Assembly: GCA_016929305.1 (NCBI GenBank)
Contig: JAFGJC010000471.1
Coordinates: 1 to 10,589 of the forward strand
From: a candidate division CSSED10-310 bacterium
Lineage (GTDB): Bacteria; CSSED10-310; JAFGJC01
Direction of reading: 5' to 3'
Length of the DNA: 10,589 bases
Below, piece by piece: positions 1-10,589 of the stretch; position 1 is the first letter of the stretch, and each line of letters opens with the position of its first letter. The translations under genes were made by a program, and so were the position numbers. The notes under the pieces are model-generated. The model saw nothing but the letters and a program-made list of their open reading frames with translations. It searched no databases and was not told where the DNA came from.

Positions 1-218
1 AAATAACACTTCGTGGCAATGTTCTTCCGGTCGGGGGTATTAAAGAAAAAATACTTGCCGCCTATCGAAGCAATATTGAAATGGTGATTTTACCGAAGCG
101 AAACAAAAAAGATCTCGATGAAATACCGGAATACGTAAAGAAAAAATTGAATTTTAAATATGTTGAAACTATCGATGATGTACTGAAGATCGCATTTCCA
201 AAAGTTGAGGAAATCTAA
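1..218 (+). CDS. lon: ATP-dependent Lon protease, C-terminal fragment (5' partial; the gene begins upstream of the window). Stop codon TAA at 216-218.
   Basis: Reading from position 3 gives [71 protein letters not shown]. This matches the conserved Lon proteolytic-domain C-terminus (…LRGxVLPIGGLKEKxLAAhRxGIKxVxIPxxNxxDLxEIP…). It is not in the ORF track because it has no in-window start. Confidence 0.9.
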
Positions 219-1129
219 ACTCTCAATGCGACAAGAGCGCGGAACAGCTTAAAACGCTGTTCTACCTCTGAACCGGTTATTTCTGCGAGTTTCCACGGAC
301 CAAACGATGTGATATTGAAGGATGCCATCACCGATCCATAAATCATGGCTTTTTTAAGAGTCCCAGTCGTTACCTTTCCCGAACGGGCTAAAGATCCCAT
401 GAACCCGCCTGCAAATGAATCTCCCGCACCGGTTGGATCAACAACAAGCGATTCCGGATAACCAGGCACATAAAACCACGATTTATCATGATACATTAGC
501 GAACCGTATTCGCCCCGTTTAACGATAACTGTTGACGGTCCCATTTTTTGTACTGAAGTTACAGCTCTCGTTATATTAATCTCACCAGAAAGCATCCGGA
601 TCTCATTTTCATTTATTATCAGTAACTGGACGTGCTTTAAGGTTTTTCGAAGCATTTGCAGATAGCCGTCAATCCAGAAATTCATTGTATCCAGAGCAAA
701 AAGCTTGGCATTTTCTATTTGTTCAATAACGCGGAGCTGAAGCTCAGGGTGAATATTACCCAGGAAAACCCATTTTGAATTTCGATAATGGCGGGGTATG
801 ACCGGGCTGAAATTTTGAAAAACGTTGAGTTGGGTATCTAGAGTTCTGGCTTCGTTCATCGAACCGCTGTATTCCCCTTTCCAGCGGAAAGTTTTACCTT
901 TGGAAATTTGAATTCCCGTTATGTCGATTTGGTTTTTCATCAACAAGTTTTTATAGGTTTCCGGGAAATCTTCGCCAACAACACCGACGACATTTACCGG
1001 AGAAAACCGTGAAGCCGCCAGGGAAAAATATGTCGCTGATCCACCAAGCATCTCGTTATGCTGCCCTGTCGGTGTTGTTACACTATCAAGAGCAATCGAA
1101 CCGACAACTAGTACTGACATACGTCTCAT
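215..1129 (-). CDS. PfkB/ribokinase-family carbohydrate or nucleoside kinase. The likely true start is the ATG at 1120 (MSVLVVGS…), which has an AAGGAGG Shine-Dalgarno at proper spacing. The ATG at 1129 sits only ~2 nt after the SD.
   Basis: The N-terminal [10 protein letters not shown]…[12 protein letters not shown] and C-terminal [15 protein letters not shown] (the DTxGAGD motif of the ribokinase/PfkB superfamily) are both present. The 3' end overlaps the lon stop by 4 bp, tail-to-tail. Confidence 0.85.
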
Positions 1130-1148
1130 TCCTCCTTTACATTGCAGT

Positions 1149-1994
1149 TTAACTCAAATAATCCTTGAGTTTTCTGCGTGATGCCACACGCTTTAATTTT
1201 TGGATAGCTCGTTGCTCAATTTTTCTTATTCGCTCTCGAGTTAATCCATATTTATTGCCTATTTCCTGTAATGTTTTTGGTTTGCCATCAAACCCATAGT
1301 GCATTTTCAATATTTCAGTTTCTCTGTCATCAAGACACGCCATCAACAACTCCACCTCATCAGCAAATGCATCTTCCATCACCTGGTCTTCAGCGGAAAC
1401 TGTTTCATAGTCCATTAGATCTATAAATTTTAAAGATTCATCTTCGTTATCAGAATGTGGTTCAATGGGGAGTGAAGCGCGGGTAGTCCGAAGTAAATTC
1501 TCTATCTCATTTTCAGGAATACCCATTGAATCTGAAAGTTCAGTGATTGTTGGCTCATGCCCTAACTCCTGTGTCAATGTCTGGATTCTTTTATTAATAC
1601 TGCTAAGTAAATTGGCTTGACTTTGCGGAAGTTTAACAATTCCAGACTTTGCTGAGATGGCATAAAGAATAGCCTGACGCACCCACCACACAGCATAGGT
1701 AATGAATTTGACACCCCGTTCTGGATTGAACCGCTTGGCAGCCTCAATGAGTCCGATTGTACCTTCATTGATAAGATCTTCCAGGGGCATGCCTGATCCG
1801 AGGTATTTTTTTGCTATAGAAACAACAAATCTGAGATTCGCTTTTACCAGTTCCTGGATCGCCGATTCGTCTCCCTCCTGAATTCGACGAGCGATTTCAG
1901 CTTCTTCCTCCTTGTCAAACATTCTGTATTTATTTATTTCCTGTAAATATTTCGAGAGGGAATTCTGATCTTCCATTGGCTTGTCAGTCCTCAT
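1149..1994 (-). CDS. RNA polymerase sigma factor, sigma-70 family. It is a short (281 aa) RpoD-like form lacking region 1.1, which resembles the compact primary sigma of the Bacteroidetes/FCB group.
   Basis: Region 1.2 (LSKYLQEI), region 2 (ANLRFVVSIAKKY…LEDLINEGTIGLIEAAKRFNPERGVKFITYAVWWVRQAI), region 3, and the region 4 HTH (LQEIGNKYGLTRERIRKIEQRAIQKLKR) are all recognisable. The start ATG overlaps the upstream hspR-like stop (ATGA) and is preceded by AAGGA 8 nt upstream. Confidence 0.9.
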   Translation of the reverse strand: MRTDKPMEDQNSLSKYLQEINKYRMFDKEEEAEIARRIQEGDESAIQELVKANLRFVVSIAKKYLGSGMPLEDLINEGTIGLIEAAKRFNPERGVKFITYAVWWVRQAILYAISAKSGIVKLPQSQANLLSSINKRIQTLTQELGHEPTITELSDSMGIPENEIENLLRTTRASLPIEPHSDNEDESLKFIDLMDYETVSAEDQVMEDAFADEVELLMACLDDRETEILKMHYGFDGKPKTLQEIGNKYGLTRERIRKIEQRAIQKLKRVASRRKLKDYLS

Positions 1995-2401
1995 GACGTT
2001 TCCTTATCATCCGATCTTTTTTCTATATGTATTACCGTTTTATAGGGAGATTTGATTAGGATACTTTCGAATCGATTCCGCAATTCCTCATCGCTTCGAC
2101 ATAATTCCTCCTGAATGTATCGAATTAATGTTTTAAATTCAGCCTGCATACTTTCAATTTCGCGTTTAAGACGCAGAATGATTTCTGTTCCCGCAATATT
2201 TACTCCCAGTTCGCGTGTCAGGGTAATAACACGGCGTATATCATCGATATCATCTTCGGAATAAAGCCTGGTATTCCCGTCTGAACGGGATGGTTTGATC
2301 AACCCTGATCTTTCATAATTCCGAAGTGTTTGGGGATGAATATCAAGTATTTTCGCGATTGCTGAAATCAAGTATTTAGGTTCATCGCGTTCGGGTTTCA
2401 A
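1991..2401 (-). CDS. hspR: MerR-family transcriptional regulator, HspR-like (heat-shock repressor type). It appears to use a TTG start at 2401, preceded by GGAGAGTGAGG.
   Basis: YLISAIAKILDIHPQTLRNYERSGLIKPSRSDGNTRLYSEDDIDDIRRVITLTRELGVNIAGTEII aligns closely to the Streptomyces/Helicobacter HspR winged-HTH (…[32 protein letters not shown]…RRYSxxDIELLRQVQQLSQDEGINLAGIKRII…). A C-terminal coiled-coil follows. The identification is from memory of the HspR family. Confidence 0.8.
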   Translation of the reverse strand: MKPERDEPKYLISAIAKILDIHPQTLRNYERSGLIKPSRSDGNTRLYSEDDIDDIRRVITLTRELGVNIAGTEIILRLKREIESMQAEFKTLIRYIQEELCRSDEELRNRFESILIKSPYKTVIHIEKRSDDKETS

Positions 2402-2408
2402 TTTGACC

Positions 2409-2828
2409 TCACTCTCCTAACAATTGTGTAACGACACATCGATGCCGGGATTTGTTATCGAAATCCAGCAGTAATATCTGCTGCCACGTCCCAAGTATAA
2501 GACGATTACCTTTTACGGGAATGGTAATATCCGGTCCGATCAAAGCTGCACGGACGTGGGAATGTCCATTACCATCATGCCATTTCAGATTGTGATGGTA
2601 GGATATCGTTTCTGGAGCCATCCGATCAATTGCCAATTGGAGATCTTTTACGGCGCCCGATTCAAATTCGATAGTCGTAAGTCCGGCAGTAGCACCGGGG
2701 ACAAAAACAACGGCAATGCCATTGATGAGTCCAGATTCAGTAATGATCTTCTGGACATCTGATGTGATATCTACGGCATGGCCATGACCTTTAGTTTGAA
2801 TATGAATCTCGGCTGTATGAACAATCAT
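2409..2828 (-). CDS. yjbQ: YjbQ/UPF0047-family protein (annotated as 'secondary thiamine-phosphate synthase enzyme').
   Basis: The family hallmarks are present: DITSDV…GIAVVFVPGATAGLTTIEFESG…DLQ…HHNLKWHDGNGHSHVRAALIGP…TIPV…G.LILGTWQQILLLDF. The size (139 aa) is typical. Confidence 0.85.
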   Translation of the reverse strand: MIVHTAEIHIQTKGHGHAVDITSDVQKIITESGLINGIAVVFVPGATAGLTTIEFESGAVKDLQLAIDRMAPETISYHHNLKWHDGNGHSHVRAALIGPDITIPVKGNRLILGTWQQILLLDFDNKSRHRCVVTQLLGE

Positions 2829-2846
2829 GCACGATTCGCATCAAAA

Positions 2847-3872
2847 TTATTGGGATGCAGACGGTTTAGATTTTGGAAACATGGAACCGAGTACACCGGA
2901 AAGATCCATCACGGAAGTGCTGGTATCGCCCGTCGGGATTCCCCAGACTTGGAAGCTTTCGCCCAGATGTTTCGCAAATTCCATTCGCACCAGCTGTTCA
3001 GCACCGTTTCCGGACAATGCTTCTACCAGTGCTTTTTGAGCTTTAGCCTGAGCCAGCCCGACCTCTTCAATACCCAACGCTTCACGCTGTTTTGCATATA
3101 GGTTTGCATCAGCCGATAACTCGATTTTTTTAGCTTCACCCTGGGCTTTCTTTACCATCGCCAATCGTTCACCTTCTGCTTCAGCTTCCGTTTTCTTCGC
3201 AAGTTCTTCTGCTGCCAGACGCTGTTCCACAGCAATACGCTTCATTTCAATTGCAGCCTGATACTCCTCGGTAAATTCAAATCTTCTGAACAGAATCTCC
3301 GTAATAATCAATCCAAATTCCGTTGTCCCGGTTTGTGTTTCAGTACCGCTATTTACAAGTTCTCTTATTTCTTTTGCTACTTTCTGCCTTGTTCTTCCAT
3401 CATATATTTCTTCCGCTGAATATTCGCCAAGTTTGTTATTGATCAGGGATCGTACGGTGGGTCGCACTATATTCGTAATAAACGTTTTTCCATATCGGCG
3501 GTGAAGTTCGGGAAGTTTTTCGAAATCCAGTCTATATCGAACAGTCACATCAATCCAGGCTTTTTGACCGTCTTTTGTTTTAAAAGAAACATCATCGCGA
3601 CCTCCATCCTGATCCTGGAACATGTCATAGTGCATTTCCTGTACCGGATAAATATCAACGATGGTTAGATGCGGAATATTTATATACAGACCGGGTTCGA
3701 GCGGTACGGGAACAATACCCTGTTTGAACCAACCGCTCTTTCCAAATCCCTGTCCAAAACCCAGCATATTCGTTCGGACACCACCTTCCTGCGGTCCAAC
3801 CTCAGAACATCCAAAAATAAAACCGATGATAGCGATGACTACAATTACAATCAGTATTGAAAGTTTTCTCAT
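2847..3872 (-). CDS. SPFH/band-7 (stomatin/prohibitin/HflC-like) membrane-anchored protein. The N-terminal signal/anchor carries a possible lipobox-like FGC. The ORF track's GTG start at 3878 is probably an extension; the ATG at 3872 has an AGAGAGG SD 7 nt upstream.
   Basis: An N-terminal hydrophobic segment MRKLSILIVIVVIAIIGFIFGC is followed by a band-7 core (…FKTKDGQKAWIDVTVRYRLD…IVRPTVRSLINNKLGEYSAEEIY…RQKVAKEIRE) and a long Ala/Glu/Lys-rich coiled-coil (EQRLAAEELAKKTEAEAEGERLAMVKKAQGEAKK…), which is typical of HflK/C-type SPFH proteins. Confidence 0.85.
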   Translation of the reverse strand: MRKLSILIVIVVIAIIGFIFGCSEVGPQEGGVRTNMLGFGQGFGKSGWFKQGIVPVPLEPGLYINIPHLTIVDIYPVQEMHYDMFQDQDGGRDDVSFKTKDGQKAWIDVTVRYRLDFEKLPELHRRYGKTFITNIVRPTVRSLINNKLGEYSAEEIYDGRTRQKVAKEIRELVNSGTETQTGTTEFGLIITEILFRRFEFTEEYQAAIEMKRIAVEQRLAAEELAKKTEAEAEGERLAMVKKAQGEAKKIELSADANLYAKQREALGIEEVGLAQAKAQKALVEALSGNGAEQLVRMEFAKHLGESFQVWGIPTGDTSTSVMDLSGVLGSMFPKSKPSASQ

Positions 3873-3894
3873 GATCACCTCTCTTTTAATTCAA

Positions 3895-5157
3895 TCATAA
3901 ACTATCCTGCAATTCAGGAACACTTTCAGGATGTGTATAATTCCCGGGAAAAAATGACGGATCCATATGCTCTTTTCTTAAATGAACAGTCTGAATATCA
4001 TCTTTGGTTCTGGGTTCGCCGTCTGCACCTTTGCTGCTGAGCATGTAACCTTCCGCTGTTTTTGTATACACAACAAGATTGCCCCAGCTGTCAGTCAAGT
4101 CATCATCGGATAAATAGCCGTTTTCAACAAACTCATTGGAAAAATCGGGATATTGATTGTAAATCAGTCGATAAGTAGAAAGCGCAAACTGTATTTGATC
4201 CATTTTTGCTTTAGTCCGTATTTTATGCTCTGTTTCCAATCCCTGCCATTCAAACATGAGGAAAAGTCTGAAAGGCATAAGCCATAAGAAAATCAAAAGC
4301 ACTATGGCAACACCCGGAATAATCAAATACTTCAGTTTTTCCTGGATTACCTGTAGATGTGAATGCCATTTTGTAACCATCTCTGATTTCGGCTTCTCCG
4401 GCACAGGAATGAGGACAACGCCCAAGTCTTCCAGATCCACGAGAGCTTGGTAACTGTAACCAGGAAACTGATGACAGCTTTGAACGATTTCATTAACCGT
4501 GAACAGACCATTTACATAGTTATATACTCTTTCCTGCAATGCAGACAACATAATGGTATTGTCAGGCAGCTGTTTTTCGGAAACTTCCGCACGTTCCGGA
4601 ACAACTCTGATTTCCGGAATTAAACGGGGAATTGCGTCAAAATCAGGAATCTGCTGCTTGATCCAATCCCATGTTTTCAGGAAAGTGTCGCCCGTTTCTG
4701 CATATTCCATTAAATCAATGGGGCGAGCAGTCTCCCTATCATAAGTAACATTCTCCTCCGATCTGAAAACAAAGAATCCATGCTGCCAAATAAAACATGG
4801 AAAAATAATCAATAGCATCTGATCTTCCAAAACATCCATAAGTTGTTCCAGATTGACCAAATTTTCTTCCAAAGCAAGATATCCGAATTTTCTGAAAACG
4901 TTGTTCTGGACATCCAGTAGATGCAACAGTTTTTCCTCTGTAAGTAATCCTCTTTTGCATAGAAGCTGCCCTATCCGAATTTCCTCCTGTGGATAATGTG
5001 ATTCTGCTCCCACACATAACCCAAACTCAAATACCATGACAACGGTATCAGTTTCACCTTGAATCGTCAGAACTCCAGTAGCCTTATCAAGAACGATTTC
5101 TTTGACAAGTTGATAAAACAGATGGTCCCGAAGACTCCCTTCCAAAGGAAAATTCAT
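3895..5157 (-). CDS. Multidomain membrane protein of unknown function. It has a cytoplasmic DUF4388-like domain containing two tandem MshEN-type putative c-di-GMP-binding motifs, one TM helix (~4252-4335), and a periplasmic domain that resembles the type II secretion pseudopilin GspG C-terminal domain (~3985-4227) without any prepilin leader. The ATG at 5157 overlaps the upstream stop (TGATG); the ORF track's first codon at 5160 is TTG.
   Basis: Motifs: RIGQLLCKRGLLTEEKLLHLLDVQ – NNVFR – KFGYLALEENLVNLEQLMDVLEDQ, versus the published MshEN consensus RLGxxLLxxGLIxxxxLxxALxxQ – 5 aa – repeat. TM helix: KYLIIPGVAIVLLIFLWLMPF. C-terminal domain: AKMDQIQFALSTYRLIYNQYPDF…DSWGNLVVYTKTAEGYMLSSKGADGEPRTKDDI, which aligns to GspG …DIVALENALDMYKLDNSVYPTT…[38 protein letters not shown]. 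Confidence 0.8.
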   Translation of the reverse strand: MNFPLEGSLRDHLFYQLVKEIVLDKATGVLTIQGETDTVVMVFEFGLCVGAESHYPQEEIRIGQLLCKRGLLTEEKLLHLLDVQNNVFRKFGYLALEENLVNLEQLMDVLEDQMLLIIFPCFIWQHGFFVFRSEENVTYDRETARPIDLMEYAETGDTFLKTWDWIKQQIPDFDAIPRLIPEIRVVPERAEVSEKQLPDNTIMLSALQERVYNYVNGLFTVNEIVQSCHQFPGYSYQALVDLEDLGVVLIPVPEKPKSEMVTKWHSHLQVIQEKLKYLIIPGVAIVLLIFLWLMPFRLFLMFEWQGLETEHKIRTKAKMDQIQFALSTYRLIYNQYPDFSNEFVENGYLSDDDLTDSWGNLVVYTKTAEGYMLSSKGADGEPRTKDDIQTVHLRKEHMDPSFFPGNYTHPESVPELQDSL

Positions 5158-7040
5158 CAATCTGTCTCCCTAATAATCAGCAATAGAGAAAAACAATAAA
5201 TGATCAGCATTAAACTAATGAGAATGACTGTTTCATAAAGTTGACCCAACTGAGGAACCAACCAAGACACTGGAAGCCACGTTTGAGCGGTTATCAGAGT
5301 TGACAGCGAAAACGACCAAAGCAGAGCCAGTATAAATCCTGAAGTCAATCGACCATCATAGACTGCTCCCATACCGGGAAACAGCACCGTAAGGCAGATT
5401 TTCGTCAGTTTTCTTCTTCTGACTCTTGTATTGACATCACGCAGATTTTTATCCCTGTCTTTCGGATCGACCTGCCCCTTTTTGGTAATCATCATTTGGC
5501 AATGAGAACAGAATTTTTTCGAGTCCGAATTTTTTTGACAACGAGGGCACATGGATGCACCACATTTTATACAAAATCGGCTGACATTCATTCGTTTTGA
5601 AATTGCCGGGATGATTAAAAAAATAACAAAAACCGAAAAAAGAACTGTAAGAGCACTCCGCATTCCCAGTCCCGGTCCTAATTTTCGCCAGTGATTTTCC
5701 TGTTCAGCGAACGATCTTTCATAAAATTGCTCAAATTCCTGCCAAATCCATTTTTTAGGGAAAAGACCATCCAATAACATGCGGTTCGGATTGGATGATA
5801 GATTATCTGTGAATTTCGAAACGAGTTTTGGATTAAGGTCGTTCGCCTTCTTCAACATACTGTCCATTTGCTGAAACTTGAACTGATGTGAGTAGGCTTT
5901 CGATAAATTACAATAGATAGCTGCATTATTAGGGTCCGTATTTTCTGCTTTGCGATATTCCGCAATTGCTTCTCCAATATTGTTTAAAATAAAATAGATA
6001 TTACCCAAGTTGAGATGTCCTATCGCATCTGATCGTTCAATTCGTGTGTATTCCATATATTCTTTTAGTGCGTCGAAGTAATAACCACCCCGTTTATAAA
6101 GCATTCCCTTCAGGAAATGCATATGTGCTTTTGATGATGATCTATCAAGATGAGCTGACAAACGGTCAATACTTTCCGCAGAATATCCCGCACCATGATA
6201 GGTATATGCCATAACCTGAATCAGCCCATCATCGTGTGCAAGCAAAACGGCAACACGAAAAACATTTAGGGGAAGGATAGCGAATAAAAACAGATATGAA
6301 AGCATCAACAGAGTGCGCTCACGCTTTCCAATATAGAACGAAAGCAAGAGCAACCACCAGAGAAACATCCAAAAAACACCAAAACCAAGCAAAAACGGCA
6401 AAACCAGTATTAAAATCACAAATATCCAAATTACTTTGGGCGGTACTTTCAGTGGCAGCCGTTCGAGTATTTCATGATGAAATAAATTGCTGTAACGAAC
6501 CACCAAAGCTGTCACGAGAATAACCATATTTATCAGAAACGTTAAAATAAGAGTGTTGCTGAGGTTACCGAGTAAAATAAGCTGTTGGTAAATATTTGAA
6601 AAAGCTTTCCAATAGGTAAGAAAACTTGTTAAAAAAGGTCCGAATACCGAAAAGATGTTTTTCTTGAAGGATACAACAATGCGTCCTCTGGCAGCAGGAA
6701 TAAAACCACCATCCATCTCTAAAGCACTCTCTAACGCCCAGAGTGCGGCGTCATAACGTTCCTGCTGGACAAGTTTCTGAGCGGAAACGACATAAGCTGC
6801 AGCAAGCTGAGGACTTAACGTTACTCCGTTGTTAAGGTTATAGTCGATGAGTGTCTCTTTGGCAGCAGCCATTACAATAGCGTTTGCATAACGATCGAAA
6901 AGACGCTCCGCCTGGATCTGCCAGAGCTCGTCGATACTCTGAGTGTTCTCAGCAGCACTGCATACGTTTGCTAACACAAACGTAAAAAGCAACATTAAAC
7001 ACACGATACCCGTTGGTAAAGAAATCCGATTCCATTTCAT
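5157..7040 (-). CDS. Large polytopic membrane protein with a cleavable signal peptide. It has a periplasmic helical N-domain, a ~5-TM bundle, TPR repeats (~5865-6152), a treble CxxC zinc-ribbon (5499-5573), and a C-terminal TM hairpin with a PG-x-G-x-x-Y-x-G motif. The ATG at 7040 (MKWNRIS…) is the likely start; the ORF track's TTG at 7049 is an extension.
   Basis: Signal peptide: MKWNRISLPTGIVCLMLLFTFVLANVCSA|AE. Hydrophobic helices lie between residues ~130 and 270. TPR-like repeats: AHMHFLKGMLYKRGGYYFDALKEYMEYT…AIGHLNLGNIYFILNNIGEAIAEYRKA…AAIYCNLSKAYSHQ. Zinc ribbon: CIKCGASMCPRCQKNSDSKKFCSHC. C-terminus: LFPGMGAVYDGRLTSGFILALLW plus a final TM. I could not assign a confident family. Confidence 0.8.
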   Translation of the reverse strand: MKWNRISLPTGIVCLMLLFTFVLANVCSAAENTQSIDELWQIQAERLFDRYANAIVMAAAKETLIDYNLNNGVTLSPQLAAAYVVSAQKLVQQERYDAALWALESALEMDGGFIPAARGRIVVSFKKNIFSVFGPFLTSFLTYWKAFSNIYQQLILLGNLSNTLILTFLINMVILVTALVVRYSNLFHHEILERLPLKVPPKVIWIFVILILVLPFLLGFGVFWMFLWWLLLLSFYIGKRERTLLMLSYLFLFAILPLNVFRVAVLLAHDDGLIQVMAYTYHGAGYSAESIDRLSAHLDRSSSKAHMHFLKGMLYKRGGYYFDALKEYMEYTRIERSDAIGHLNLGNIYFILNNIGEAIAEYRKAENTDPNNAAIYCNLSKAYSHQFKFQQMDSMLKKANDLNPKLVSKFTDNLSSNPNRMLLDGLFPKKWIWQEFEQFYERSFAEQENHWRKLGPGLGMRSALTVLFSVFVIFLIIPAISKRMNVSRFCIKCGASMCPRCQKNSDSKKFCSHCQMMITKKGQVDPKDRDKNLRDVNTRVRRRKLTKICLTVLFPGMGAVYDGRLTSGFILALLWSFSLSTLITAQTWLPVSWLVPQLGQLYETVILISLMLIIYCFSLLLIIRETD

Positions 7041-7190: not shown

Positions 7191-7204
7191 ATTCAATATT
7201 GAAT
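7191..7204. promoter_or_regulatory. Perfect 14-bp palindrome ATTCAATATTGAAT, a candidate operator, in the 209-bp divergent intergenic region between the 7-gene minus-strand cluster and the plus-strand small gene.
   Basis: The sequence is its own reverse complement and sits ~55 bp upstream of the ATG at 7259. It is flanked by the partial repeat GGATTC…ATTGAT. Confidence 0.4.
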
Positions 7205-7258
7205 ATTGATTTCACATTGTCGATTTCTATAAAATTTAACATAGAATCAGGAATTTTG

Positions 7259-7540
7259 ATGAAAAAAAAGCGGGATGAAGCCGAACAGGAAAGATTAGGA
7301 CAAGAACTTAGTAAAGTCATCGCCGACCTGGTCTCTAATTCACATGAAGTTCAGGACATCGTTTATGCCATGCATAAAAAGGGTTATAAACCAAATATTT
7401 GGCTATCTGTTTATATTCTTCTTTCCGACAGCAATCCCAATGATACCTCTTTAGAAATGATAGATTACAATCTTTCAGCACAGGACATAAAATGGCTGCG
7501 ATCCATTAATATTGATGCTAATAACAAATCTGCAGAATAA
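7259..7540 (+). CDS. Small hypothetical protein (93 aa) that I could not assign to a family. The ORF track's 7199 start is an upstream extension; the ATG at 7259 has AGGAA 8 nt upstream.
   Basis: MKKKRDEAEQERLGQELSKVIADLVSNSHEVQDIVYAMHKKGYKPNIWLSVYILLSDS… is an open frame of plausible coding composition with an SD-like element. No motifs were recognised. Confidence 0.5.
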   Translation: MKKKRDEAEQERLGQELSKVIADLVSNSHEVQDIVYAMHKKGYKPNIWLSVYILLSDSNPNDTSLEMIDYNLSAQDIKWLRSINIDANNKSAE

Positions 7541-7963
7541 TTAGAGTGCTTTAATGCCGGGAATGTGTTTCATTCCGTCGACTTTTTCGTTTAATTTGCA
7601 CCTGATTTTAAATTCGGGATTTCTGAAAACAATTGAAAACCCGTGATCTCGCTGGAAAAGTTTCACATCATCAAGCGTTTTCTGAGTATTATCGGAATCT
7701 ATCTTGGCAACAGTACCTTCCTTTAAATTTACAATGAATACACCAAACTTAGTTGTTGTAATTTTTAAATTCAATCCTTCTTTATCACGGAAAATTTTAC
7801 CTTCTTCATCGGTTAACCAACCATCTTCATTCGCAGGATTAGCAAGAATCTGGTCTGTAACATCAATCCATTCCGAAGATTTCACATTTTCTTGAGCAAA
7901 AGAAGGTGAAGTCAGCAAGAATGTGCTCAAAACTAACATAACAAGTAAAAGCTGCCGTTTCAT
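7541..7963 (-). CDS. Secreted hypothetical protein (~140 aa) with an N-terminal signal peptide. The real start is the ATG at 7963 (MKRQLLLVMLVLSTFLLTSPSFA|QE), preceded by a strong AGGAGG SD. The ORF track's 8056 start is an extension.
   Basis: The reverse complement of 7961-7986 reads GTTTTTATTAGGAGGTTAGGTATG. The signal peptide is typical (positive n-region, hydrophobic core, AxA-like SFAQ). The mature part is beta-rich and Lys/Asp-rich with no recognised domain. Confidence 0.6.
   Translation of the reverse strand: MKRQLLLVMLVLSTFLLTSPSFAQENVKSSEWIDVTDQILANPANEDGWLTDEEGKIFRDKEGLNLKITTTKFGVFIVNLKEGTVAKIDSDNTQKTLDDVKLFQRDHGFSIVFRNPEFKIRCKLNEKVDGMKHIPGIKAL
7559..7587 (+). terminator. Possible weak intrinsic terminator for the 7259..7540 gene. 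The stem is GGAATG/CATTCC with loop TGTTT, followed after 6 nt by a TTTTT run. It lies inside the 3' end of the convergent minus-strand CDS.
   Basis: Inverted repeat at 7560-7565 and 7571-7576 with a T5 run at 7583-7587. The U-run is not immediately adjacent, so this is weak. Confidence 0.25.
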
Positions 7964-8068
7964 ACCTAACCTCCTAATAAAAACAACTGTTCTGCTGGTG
8001 CAACATAACATGGTTGTCTTGTGATGTCCAGGCACTTGAGTTGAGATGCAGAGCATTCCTGTCAGTTG

Positions 8069-8097
8069 CTTGACAGACAGCCCAAAATGTTATTAGT
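8069..8097 (+). promoter_or_regulatory. Candidate promoter for the methyltransferase/glycosyltransferase operon. A TTGACA -35-like hexamer (8069-8074) is embedded in an inverted repeat CTGTCA-N6-TGACAG (8058-8075). TATTAG follows ~16 bp downstream (8091-8096).
   Basis: The sequence itself. The -10 lacks the terminal T, so it is weak. If real, it implies the CDS starts at the ATG at 8111/8117 rather than the TTG at 8066. Confidence 0.25.
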
Positions 8098-8110
8098 TCT
8101 TGAGCTGAGA

Positions 8111-9247
8111 ATGATAATGAATCCTACTGCATTACCACCGGACAAATACCAGCGCTACCGTCAGGCAGCCCAGATAATCCATGCAAATTGCGATATGCAG
8201 TCTGCCGTCAGTATTCTGGATATCGGTGCCAGTGAAAATTTACTGGCAATGTTCCTGCCCGGAGCAAACGTCATTCAGCTTGACAAATCCCCAGGTAAGA
8301 ATTCAAAACACATAATATGTGGAAATGCTCAGCAGCTTCCTTTTTCCGACAATACTTTCTCCTTCGCTATCGCACTCGATCTACTTGAACACTTGCCAAA
8401 ATCGGATCGCCAGCAGGCGGTACGTGAAGCCGGGAGAGTCGCTCAGAATGGTCTCATTATCGCGTTTCCTGTTCAATCCAACACCACCGAAAAACTGGAA
8501 AACATCCTTAACGCGATTGAAGTATCTACGCGAGGTCAGACCAATCCATTTCTCGATGAGCACCATCTTCACGGGTTAGTTGAAGAAGCACCATTGATTC
8601 AATATCTCAAGACTGTTTATCCCTTCGTCATATCACTTCCCAATTATAATCTTACCGCGTGGTTTCTAGGCAGTATTTGGGAAGAAATTTTCGCTATGCT
8701 TCCATGTTCAGAAAGGTTAAAGGTTTCGATATATGAGTTATTCAATAGATTGTATTTCGATACGAATTTGAAGCATCCGGTTTATCGCTTAACTGTTGTT
8801 GCGAGTAACAGCCAAATGAAACTACCCGAACCATCTGATGTTTCTGCCGATCTGGTGAAAACCGCTGAAATGCTTCAATCCGATGTGACACGTACTTTTG
8901 AATCCCTAAAATCCCTTGATACGTATGCCAGGAAAATGCAACTGGAACTTGACGACAGTTCTACCTCACGAAAATCTCTTGAAAACGCCTATCTTCGCTT
9001 GGAAAAAGAAATACACCAGAAAACTCGGGAACTCAGCGAATTGACACGATCCAACCATCTTCTCCAAAAAGAATATGATTCAACAAAAAAATACGTTGAA
9101 AAAGTTGAAATTGCGTATCGTCACAGTCTAAGTTTAATCTCATCGCTAGAACAGCATATCACTGATCTTCAGAATGAGTTGATACGTATACTGACGGATC
9201 CTTCCGGTTCAAGAAAATCTGACAACCGTGATGATGAAGTCCCATGA
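8111..9247 (+). CDS. Class I SAM-dependent methyltransferase (Methyltransf_11-like) with a ~120-aa C-terminal coiled-coil. The start is uncertain: candidates are TTG 8066, ATG 8087, ATG 8111, and ATG 8117.
   Basis: Motif I is ILDIGASENLL, the acidic post-I motif is VIQLDKSP, and motifs II/III are ICGNAQQLPFSDNTFSFAIALDLLEHL. The C-terminal heptad-rich segment runs KTAEMLQSDVTRTFESLKSLDTYARKMQLELDD…LEKEIHQKTRELSELTRSNHLLQKEYDSTKKYVEKVEIAYRHSLSLISSLEQHITDLQNELIRIL. Confidence 0.8.
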   Translation: MIMNPTALPPDKYQRYRQAAQIIHANCDMQSAVSILDIGASENLLAMFLPGANVIQLDKSPGKNSKHIICGNAQQLPFSDNTFSFAIALDLLEHLPKSDRQQAVREAGRVAQNGLIIAFPVQSNTTEKLENILNAIEVSTRGQTNPFLDEHHLHGLVEEAPLIQYLKTVYPFVISLPNYNLTAWFLGSIWEEIFAMLPCSERLKVSIYELFNRLYFDTNLKHPVYRLTVVASNSQMKLPEPSDVSADLVKTAEMLQSDVTRTFESLKSLDTYARKMQLELDDSSTSRKSLENAYLRLEKEIHQKTRELSELTRSNHLLQKEYDSTKKYVEKVEIAYRHSLSLISSLEQHITDLQNELIRILTDPSGSRKSDNRDDEVP

Positions 9248-10589
9248 AACGTTTACTTGTTTTTGGATTAAGCCCGTTACCTTTCGAAAACACCACTAAG
9301 AATTTCGGCCCCGGAATACGTGCCTGGCAATTCATTCAACCGCTTCTTCAGCATGACTGTGAAGTCATGCTTCTCGCTAATCGAATTCCATATATTTATC
9401 CTGAGAATACGCCTCCGGAGGTCACCATATCGAAAGGCTCTTTCAACTACACACACATGTCAGATCATGTGTTTCGAAATCAGCAAAAAATTCAAGCATA
9501 TTATGATCGTTTTAAACCCGACGCCATATTATCTGCAACAATTTTCGCATCTCCACCGTTGAAGACGTTAAAAACGGATCTGCCAATCTGGATTGATCTT
9601 TTTGGACATGTCATGGCAGAAGCTCAGGCAAAAGCGTACAGATATCAAAGTAACGATTACCTGGAACATTTTTGGAAACACGAAATTTCAGCTTTGGAAA
9701 CCGGTGATATTTTCTCAACCGTCTCGAAAGCACAGGAATATGCCACTATCGGTGAGCTGGGTCTGCTGGGAAGACTGAGTGCTCAGACAACAGGCTATCG
9801 ATTTACACGTGTCATTCCATGTGCTATGGATCCAGATCCACTTGAACATAAAACGCAAGCTTTTCGTGGCATCGACGTTCCCGAGGATGCATTTGTTGTT
9901 TTATGGAGTGGTGGATATAACACTTGGACCGATATTGACACGCTTTTTGAAGGTCTAGATAAGGCAATGTCTAAAAATCCGGATATCTGGTTTGTGTCGA
10001 CAGGAGGACAAATAGACGGGCACGATGAAAAAACCTATCCAAAATTCCTTCGCAAAATAGCCAAATCCAGGTACAAGAATCGATTCATAATGAAGGGATG
10101 GATCCCTAAAATAGGAGTGACCGATTATTATTTCGAAGCAGATATTGGCATTAACATTGACTTGTTCATGTATGAGGGAATGTTTGGTTCCAAGAATAGA
10201 GTTCTTGACTGGATGCGCGCAGGATTGCCCAGCCTTATTGGAGAATTATGTGAGCTTTCACATGATCTTCCAGAAAAAAAACTTGCATTCAATTATCCGC
10301 TTCAGAATGCAGACGCGCTTGCCGAAAAACTGCTATATCTAGCTAAAAACCGAGATATGGTGCGGGAAACAGGACAACGTGCAAAGGAATTCGGTCTGAA
10401 ATATTTAACTTTCGAAGCATCTACCAGAATGTTTCAGAATTGGCTGATCTCTCCTGAAAAATCACCCGATCATAGCAACAAGAATATAAAAACACCTTCG
10501 TTCATATCATCCAGAACGAAGATCAACAGTGATACGTTGACCTCTCTGCAAAACGCTCACGATCATATCCTTGAACTCGAAAACTATAT
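9244..10589 (+). CDS. Glycosyltransferase, family GT4 (group 1, GT-B fold), 3' partial. It runs off the window and starts at an ATG overlapping the methyltransferase stop (ATGA). It is not listed in the ORF track.
   Basis: My translation gives MKRLLVFGLSPLPFENTTKNFGPGIRAWQFIQPLLQHDCEVMLLANRIPY…VVLWSGGYNTWTDIDTLFEGLDKAMSKNPDIWFVSTGGQ…FEADIGINIDLFMYEGMFGSKNRVLDWMRAGLPSLIGE…. It contains the GT4 EX7E-type motif (E…G.FGSKNRVLDWMRAGLP) and the C-terminal Rossmann-half architecture. Confidence 0.8.
   Translation, partial: MKRLLVFGLSPLPFENTTKNFGPGIRAWQFIQPLLQHDCEVMLLANRIPYIYPENTPPEVTISKGSFNYTHMSDHVFRNQQKIQAYYDRFKPDAILSATIFASPPLKTLKTDLPIWIDLFGHVMAEAQAKAYRYQSNDYLEHFWKHEISALETGDIFSTVSKAQEYATIGELGLLGRLSAQTTGYRFTRVIPCAMDPDPLEHKTQAFRGIDVPEDAFVVLWSGGYNTWTDIDTLFEGLDKAMSKNPDIWFVSTGGQIDGHDEKTYPKFLRKIAKSRYKNRFIMKGWIPKIGVTDYYFEADIGINIDLFMYEGMFGSKNRVLDWMRAGLPSLIGELCELSHDLPEKKLAFNYPLQNADALAEKLLYLAKNRDMVRETGQRAKEFGLKYLTFEASTRMFQNWLISPEKSPDHSNKNIKTPSFISSRTKINSDTLTSLQNAHDHILELENY

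Follow-up and report, generated by a model that had tools for sequence, protein, structure and literature searches.

A PATAN/DUF4388 protein with an inserted MshEN_N-type motif, one membrane helix and a GspG-like pseudopilin domain: a predicted c-di-GMP receptor encoded next to a conserved TPR/zinc-ribbon protein

What might be the role of a protein that carries a predicted cyclic di-GMP (c-di-GMP) module on the one side of a single membrane helix and the globular domain of a type II secretion system (T2SS) pseudopilin on the other, with no prepilin leader? This question is raised by a gene at 3895..5157 on the minus strand of contig JAFGJC010000471.1 from a candidate division CSSED10-310 bacterium. 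The window, i.e. the stretch of DNA analysed here, is the whole 10,589-base contig of the record that holds its product, MBN1552765.1. Our analysis confirms that the product (the target) is composed of four parts, namely a PATAN/DUF4388 domain, an MshEN_N-type motif inserted therein, one transmembrane (TM) helix and a GspG-like pseudopilin domain. Together with the product of the gene directly upstream it probably acts as a c-di-GMP receptor of the inner membrane that does not polymerise.

The mechanically called open reading frame (ORF) of the target spans 3895..5160 (minus strand, 421 codons) and begins with a TTG at 5160. A Shine-Dalgarno sequence (AGGGAG) is located 8 nt upstream of an ATG at 5157, and this ATG overlaps the TGA stop codon of the upstream gene (TGATG). 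The start codon is likely the ATG at 5157, giving a product of 420 amino acids (aa) encoded at 3895..5157. This product is identical to MBN1552765.1, which bears the NCBI product name 'type II secretion system protein GspG'. The parts of the target and its partner gene are as follows (420-aa numbering).

3895..5157, minus strand: gene of the PATAN(MshEN_N)-winged helix-TM-pseudopilin protein, 420 aa (MBN1552765.1; ATG at 5157)
4705..5142, minus strand: PATAN/DUF4388 core, residues 6-151, β-strands flanking a four-helix insertion
4819..4977, minus strand: MshEN_N-type c-di-GMP module of 53 residues (motif 1, spacer and motif 2; binding predicted)
4405..4572, minus strand: acidic winged-helix-like subdomain, residues ~196-251, C-terminal part of the full PATAN region
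4252..4329, minus strand: single TM helix, residues ~277-302 (hydropathy; alignment with PulG 5WDA)
3994..4221, minus strand: predicted periplasmic GspG-like pseudopilin domain, residues 313-388, with α1C, DSWGN, β-sheet and the SSKGADGEPRTKDDI loop
5157..7049, minus strand: conserved partner gene, 630 aa, polytopic tetratricopeptide repeat (TPR)/zinc-ribbon protein, its stop codon overlapping the start codon of the target

An AlphaFold2 model of the target was built from an alignment of 122 relatives (A2) and reached a mean predicted local distance difference test (pLDDT) score of 87. The PATAN β-strands (residues 6-53 and 128-133) enclose a four-helix insertion at 58-123 and are followed by the winged-helix-like subdomain at ~196-251. 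The C-terminal part consists of one uninterrupted helix (259-333) and a small β-sheet (363-393). By hydropathy only one segment, residues ~277-303, is strongly hydrophobic, in line with the one membrane pass proposed in an earlier note on this DNA. The protein is thus predicted to be bitopic, with residues 1 to ~255 in the cytoplasm and the pseudopilin head in the periplasm.

The predicted c-di-GMP site consists of motif 1 (RIGQLLCKRGLLTEEKLLHLLDVQ, residues 61-84), the spacer NNVFR and motif 2 (KFGYLALEENLVNLEQLMDVLEDQ, residues 90-113), encoded at 4819..4977 exactly as stated in the earlier note. The module is defined by two tandem 24-residue motifs of the form [RKPN]hGxxhhxx[GAS]hhxxxxhxxxhxx[Q...] spaced by 5 residues (Wang et al. 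2016). The target shows this tandem arrangement with two deviations: core position 7 of motif 1 is a Cys, and turn position 10 of motif 2 is an Asn. Ligand contacts are made in each motif by R1, L2, the backbone of G3, L17, L21 and Q24 (Wang et al. 2016, PMC5013675). These positions are kept in motif 1 (R61/I62/G63, L77, L81, Q84) as well as in motif 2 (K90/F91/G92, L106, L110, Q113). K90 is one of three departures in motif 2 that had been pointed out before (K1, A6, N10), and the other two, Ala at position 6 and Asn at position 10, were likewise found. The same study catalogues disabling substitutions and lists XpsE as a non-binder (Wang et al. 2016, PMC5013675); changes of the XpsE type are absent from both motifs of the target.

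Profiles and structure point in the same direction. The NCBIfam model NF053729 (cyclic di-GMP-binding domain, MshE-related) matches the target over 53 of 53 positions (E 8e-9), and all 120 sampled relatives match it at E < 0.01 (best E 1.3e-18). A profile of the family matches MshE (5HTL) at E 7.5e-9. In the AlphaFold2 model both motifs lie in a four-helix bundle that superposes on c-di-GMP-bound MshE at 0.8 Å. Among 120 diverse relatives the twelve contact positions are the best conserved ones of the module (mean 3.38 bits, versus 2.45 bits for helix-core positions and 1.5 bits for 'x' positions; contact vs 'x' positions, Mann-Whitney p 6e-7), and the spacer is 5 residues long in 119 of the 120. 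As judged from this conservation pattern, the predicted c-di-GMP site is under selection across the family. For MshEN_N modules from many contexts, c-di-GMP binding in the range of 14 nM to 0.5 µM has been established (PMC5013675), and the target is expected to bind c-di-GMP as well. It differs from V. cholerae MshE (PDB 5HTL), where MshEN is located at the N-terminus of a T2SSE ATPase, by holding only the MshEN_N half, inserted in PATAN.

The surrounding domain is matched by Pfam DUF4388/PATAN (PF14332) with 48 bits against a cutoff of 25 (residues 7-151 in 421-aa numbering) and was found in all 120 sampled relatives. Hence the proposed embedding of the motifs in a DUF4388-type domain holds by Pfam and NCBIfam matches as well as by the four-helix insertion in the model, and each of the profile checks suggested before (DUF4388, T2SSG, MshE-type motif) returned a significant match. 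A core domain with a two-repeat α-helical insertion is common to the target and the PATAN proteins with α-clip (Makarova et al. 2006; Synechocystis PixE/PixG/LsiR), and the full PATAN region comprises ~250 residues, as in PixE (1-258). In contrast to PatA-type proteins, which are soluble and carry a C-terminal receiver (REC) domain, the target continues into a membrane helix and a periplasmic pseudopilin domain; no REC match was found in it, so the PatA-type PATAN-REC layout is not present. The insertion, the α-clip, is also found at the beginning of ATPases of T2SS and type IV pili, and PATAN domains are described as output modules with a location at the inner membrane and with PilB1 and PilC as binding partners (bioRxiv 10.1101/2021.06.11.447907). 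Their membrane localisation requires still-unidentified partners (Han et al., bioRxiv 10.1101/2021.06.11.447907).

Three relatives outside the window (P0141, P0163 and P0166) are much longer, with ~1,450-1,490 aa and 5-6 stretches matching the family profile. Five DUF4388/PATAN repeats were assigned to P0141 by Pfam. No membrane helix was detected in the three proteins and their C-terminal ends look TPR-like by eye. They are soluble multi-PATAN relatives of the target family.

The C-terminal half is matched by Pfam T2SSG (PF08334) with 28.1 bits against a cutoff of 21 (residues 314-389), and the family profile matches GspG structures at E 1e-6 to 1e-4. A profile of the C-terminal part (A7) aligns with GspG/PulG/EpsG over α1C (..YKL..G.YP..), the DPWG motif, the β-strands and the terminal SxGxDG..T.DDI loop. 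In GspG the Ca2+ site is located in this loop. Since α1C and the β-sheet are also present in the model, profile and structure agree on the GspG fold that had been proposed for this domain. The similarity is detected only by profiles and structure: a single-sequence phmmer search of the C-terminal 147 residues against PDB did not find GspG.

The alignment to full-length PulG (5WDA) begins at residue 5 of the mature pilin, and the membrane helix is continuous with α1C in the model (259-333). Because the alignment begins at residue 5, we regard the membrane helix as the counterpart of pilin α1N. The earlier note had considered the N-terminal pilin helix to be missing and the membrane helix to be an ordinary one; according to the PulG alignment both views have to be given up, the helix being a remnant of α1N. 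The absence of a prepilin leader and cleavage site, in contrast, is borne out. A class III signal motif was not found at the expected site in any of 270 family proteins, the sole match (1 of 270) lying at residue 90 inside the cytoplasmic domain.

GspG/PulG/EpsG (PF08334; PDB 4LW9, 5WDA, 2KEP, 3G20) possess a class III signal peptide, Gly-1/Phe+1 and Glu5, none of which is present in the target: a Leu is aligned to Glu5, and Gly-1/Phe+1 and the short leader are missing. Instead of the short basic leader expected there, a 276-residue domain precedes the helix, and roughly 25 residues corresponding to the αβ-loop of GspG are deleted. With TIGR01710, the equivalog model of GspG, the target reaches 15.7 bits against a cutoff of 88.85, the match covering only the last 44 residues of the domain. 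Moreover the target is located outside any gsp operon, unlike T2SS GspG. In the simplest evolutionary reading PATAN replaced the cytoplasmic leader of a GspG-like prepilin while the N-in topology was kept. Owing to the missing cleavage site and the 276-residue cytoplasmic domain the target cannot enter a fibre. The NCBI name 'GspG' is therefore wrong.

The target is not a one-off but belongs to a large family distributed over at least three phyla (Nitrospirota, Acidobacteriota and CSSED10-310). A word-indexed search with the single protein returned five close relatives (41-45% identity), a profile search hundreds of Nitrospirota proteins of ~349 aa with PF14332 and PF08334. An exhaustive search of representatives gave 568 clusters (50% identity level) at E < 1e-30, and most of the top 150 clusters are covered by the family profile nearly from end to end. 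In contigs from one genome per species, a relative was found in 231 genomes. Thermodesulfovibrionales and other Nitrospirota make up most of them, and Acidobacteriota also occur; this spread is biased, because the patterns used for searching were tilted towards the Nitrospirota subfamily. A hydrophobic helix after residue 200 was detected in 255 of 270 family proteins by a hydropathy scan, followed by a tail with a median of 81 residues. T2SSG is matched by 52 of 120 sampled representatives, and one subgroup shows a more degenerate tail ending in ...GDFLLDPEFL...PLVLLD. Automated pipelines label some relatives 'DUF4388 / T2SS protein G'; the name used by JGI is 'predicted transcriptional regulator'.

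Full-text searches of the literature on DUF4388, PATAN + pseudopilin and MshEN + pseudopilin retrieved no description of the architecture or the gene pair, and the combination of PATAN, TM helix and T2SSG is absent from the architectures in Supplementary Table 4 of Wang et al. (PMC5013675). The impression of an undescribed architecture thus stands for the searchable literature. MshEN_N, PATAN with α-clip and the T2SSG fold are known as such; new are the pilin-derived membrane output on an MshEN-type receptor and the conserved partner.

This partner had gone unremarked in the earlier note. Our locus sample comprised 86 loci, i.e. 85 fetched ones and the window. In 84 of the 86, which stem from three phyla, a homologue of the TPR/zinc-ribbon membrane protein is encoded directly upstream on the same strand, and its stop codon usually overlaps the start codon of the target by 4 or 10 nt. 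Three further loci seemed partner-less in the initial BLAST with the partner of the window; there the contig edge adjoins the target gene. In one locus (L079) the upstream ORF of 614 aa turned out to be a divergent TPR/zinc-ribbon protein of the same layout. Partners from CSSED10-310 and Nitrospirota share 23% identity over ~500 residues (E 2e-24).

The partner shows TPR matches in Pfam. From the N-terminus, a signal/anchor segment and four membrane helices lead to the TPR domain; a further membrane helix separates this domain from a Cys-rich zinc ribbon, and a very basic stretch and two or three membrane helices complete the protein. C490, C493, C511 and C514 of the zinc ribbon are invariant, C498 and C501 nearly so. 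Hydropathy and charge, read by the positive-inside rule, place the TPR domain in the periplasm and the zinc ribbon in the cytoplasm. A conserved LPG...IYAG motif is found in the membrane segment after the zinc ribbon. The partner represents an uncharacterised conserved family which public records name only 'tetratricopeptide repeat protein'. Matches to Wzy_C_2, PilW, Tgl, PilF and MamA were far below the cutoffs and were dismissed as generic TPR similarity.

Genes for a secretion or pilus machine were searched for in the surroundings. All ORFs of the 85 related loci (±8 kb; up to 10 kb for five of them) and of the window were scanned for motifs, and neither a prepilin-type N-terminus nor a GspE/PilB/PilT-type Walker A nor a GGDEF motif was found. 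T2SS or type IV pilus genes were likewise absent from the called genes of five loci and from a Pfam scan of nine neighbouring ORFs in one locus (L006). Hence the pair is not encoded together with GspD/E/F or PilB/C/Q and prepilin genes, and a nearby diguanylate cyclase gene, also proposed as a thing to look for, was not seen within these distances. The coupling to a T2SS or type IV pseudopilus suggested in the earlier note thus finds no support in the gene neighbourhood.

Taken together, we consider it probable that the target is a non-polymerising, bitopic c-di-GMP receptor of the inner membrane which works in a two-protein complex with its partner. The full PATAN domain with its intact MshEN_N four-helix insertion would bind one c-di-GMP. 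One long helix would connect it with a periplasmic domain whose ancestor was a major pseudopilin of the GspG type, PATAN taking exactly the place of the prepilin leader. Having lost the prepilin peptidase site and Glu5, the protein should stay anchored in the membrane and not become part of a filament. It may form a 1:1 complex with its partner, the product of the upstream, translationally coupled gene, and both members of the complex would have cytoplasmic and periplasmic parts. Binding of c-di-GMP could then alter the conformation or the contacts of PATAN, and the altered PATAN would change the activity of the complex at the membrane or in the periplasm.

Several observations weigh against this proposal. 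The NF053729 score of the target (35.1 bits) is just under the curated cutoff of 38 bits. In motif 2, moreover, the Leu at position 6 and the Gly at turn position 10 that most relatives possess are replaced by Ala and Asn. The proposed contact of target and partner is drawn only from gene order and overlap. The model of the partner is poor (pLDDT 64), shows generic TPR similarity only and is uninformative on the output. P0259, a metagenomic protein of 834 aa, apparently joins the N-terminal two-thirds of the partner to a PATAN-pseudopilin protein in a single ORF and lacks the zinc ribbon and the last membrane helices of the partner. It was rejected as a Rosetta-stone fusion: its middle is rich in Arg, Gly and Pro, residues 340-450 resemble an out-of-frame translation, and this suggests a frameshift artefact across the overlapping gene junction.

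How do other explanations compare? That the target is a genuine major pseudopilin GspG, processed and polymerised, is hardly credible. The NCBI product name and the T2SSG score above the Pfam cutoff would fit, yet they are outweighed by the TIGR01710 score far below its cutoff, the cytoplasmic domain in place of a short leader, the absent G/F-T-L-I-E motif with its Glu5, the deleted αβ-loop and the lack of T2SS genes nearby. Very improbable, too, is an α-clip insertion that is purely structural or protein-binding, as in XpsE/GspE N1, in a target unresponsive to c-di-GMP. Some MshEN-like domains have indeed lost binding (XpsE; PMC5013675), and the slightly low NCBIfam score and the Ala and Asn of motif 2 would agree with such a loss. 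Against it stand the absence of all XpsE-type disabling substitutions, the contact residues being the best conserved ones of the entire cytoplasmic part across the family and the 0.8 Å fit to c-di-GMP-bound MshE. A quite unlikely reading reverses the direction of signalling: the pseudopilin domain, possibly with the TPR domain of the partner, would detect a periplasmic ligand or the state of the envelope, c-di-GMP being a second input. We know of no ligand pocket in GspG domains, which speaks against it. In one variant the winged helix would make the target a ToxR-like membrane-tethered transcription factor. The order of cytoplasmic winged helix, one membrane helix and periplasmic domain, the JGI name and TrmB-type and MarR-type matches in 10 and 6 of 120 relatives favour the sensor reading with its variant. 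The winged-helix region, however, has a net charge of -5 in the target (family medians -9 and -4; positive in only 6 of 120), which is unfavourable for DNA binding, and its structural neighbours include peptide-binding RRE domains and DNA binders alike. Because of this acidity the sensor or transcription-factor reading becomes less likely and DNA binding of the ToxR type is disfavoured. Han et al. also argue against DNA binding by PatA-type proteins (bioRxiv 10.1101/2021.06.11.447907).

More weight is due to a role as accessory or regulatory protein for a type IV pilus or T2SS whose genes lie elsewhere in the genome; we still regard this role as unlikely. Helix and head would dock among pilins, PATAN would bind PilB/GspE and PilC/GspF, and c-di-GMP would start, brake or localise fibre assembly; such a role and the partner complex are not mutually exclusive. 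PATAN on its own is sufficient to reverse phototaxis (bioRxiv 10.1101/2021.06.11.447907), a Myxococcus study on regulators of type IVa pili lists PATAN proteins among its candidates, and the same α-clip/MshEN_N module regulates ATPases of the MshE/PilB type (PMC5013675). The C-terminal half, moreover, is a true GspG homologue including the helix equivalent to α1N. On the other side, no prepilin, GspE/PilB/PilT-type or other pilus gene was seen in the 85 loci (±8 kb, for five of them up to 10 kb) or in the window, and the only conserved neighbour, the TPR/zinc-ribbon protein, has no specific pilus-family match. A link to pilus or T2SS is thus attractive on domain logic and unsupported by gene context, and we hold it to be doubtful. 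Equally tentative is a more daring idea, in which the gene pair is a hitherto unrecognised trans-membrane c-di-GMP device. A pseudopilin, its leader peptide exchanged for a c-di-GMP-binding PATAN domain, would have become a permanently anchored 'prepilin mimic' that, with the partner, gates or nucleates a pilus-like or other envelope machine from within the cell, depending on c-di-GMP. If true, the second messenger would here control the fibre subunit and not the ATPase, which would be a new mode of control. The two-protein receptor described above remains the reading we prefer.

A cytoplasmic c-di-GMP receptor tied to an output at the membrane or in the periplasm is a concept that the target would share with LapD and NfrB. 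LapD combines a degenerate GGDEF-EAL part with a periplasmic LapG-binding domain, and NfrB is a glycosyltransferase. NfrB uses an MshEN module like the target; the output parts of both proteins show no relation to that of the target in sequence or fold. Cyclases and phosphodiesterases far outnumber the c-di-GMP receptors known so far, and PilZ, MshEN and ComFB are the sole receptor families with a wide distribution (PMC12448109). With the family of the target, hundreds of further candidates come into view in Nitrospirota, Acidobacteriota and candidate phyla, groups whose c-di-GMP outputs are scarcely known. The family joins three elements tied to type IV pilus or T2SS biology (PATAN, α-clip/MshEN_N and pseudopilin), and this fusion offers a testable handle on how PATAN acts at the membrane. 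It would also be an example of a filament subunit turned into a membrane-anchored signalling protein, and the misleading public annotation 'GspG' is corrected. That MshEN is already known as a promiscuous module tempers the interest.

Neighbours other than the partner differ by phylum. CSSED10-310 loci show SPFH, YjbQ, MerR, a sigma-70 family factor and PfkB; in the window these are five genes on the same strand following the target with short gaps (215..3878, minus strand), encoding SPFH/Band 7, YjbQ/UPF0047, a MerR-family regulator, a 281-aa sigma-70 family factor and a PfkB kinase. The order from SPFH to PfkB is common to two CSSED10-310 relatives, whose targets are only ~40% identical, and is not kept in other phyla. 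Acidobacteriota loci show purine biosynthesis genes, DUF1844, an aminotransferase and a class A penicillin-binding protein. Nitrospirota loci have a HAD hydrolase, a CDP-alcohol phosphatidyltransferase and PlsY upstream and QueC downstream. In L003, L004 and about 70 other Nitrospirota loci the three upstream genes precede the pair on the same strand. The stop codon of PlsY overlaps the start codon of the partner there, which hints at co-expression of the Nitrospirota pair with phospholipid synthesis genes.

On the other side of the pair the window contains the following genes.

7199..7540, plus strand: small ORF, 113 aa, between the pair and the methyltransferase gene
7541..8056, minus strand: small ORF, 171 aa, with a hydrophobic N-terminal segment, between the pair and the methyltransferase gene
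8066..9247, plus strand: methyltransferase with a long coiled-coil tail, divergent from the pair
9244..10587, plus strand: group 1 glycosyltransferase, divergent from the pair, its ORF running off the right contig end

Neither the 171-aa nor the 113-aa ORF gave a significant family match. Rfam and tRNA scans of the window returned nothing, thus no c-di-GMP riboswitch is present in the window, and promoter and terminator scans stayed at background level. The gene pair was also submitted to PADLOC, which reported no defence-system match. In two related loci (L001 and L005) ORFs of similar size are found at the place of the two small ORFs, and the positions of the methyltransferase and the glycosyltransferase are matched by a methyltransferase and a group 1-type glycosyltransferase, which are separated by a family 2 glycosyltransferase.

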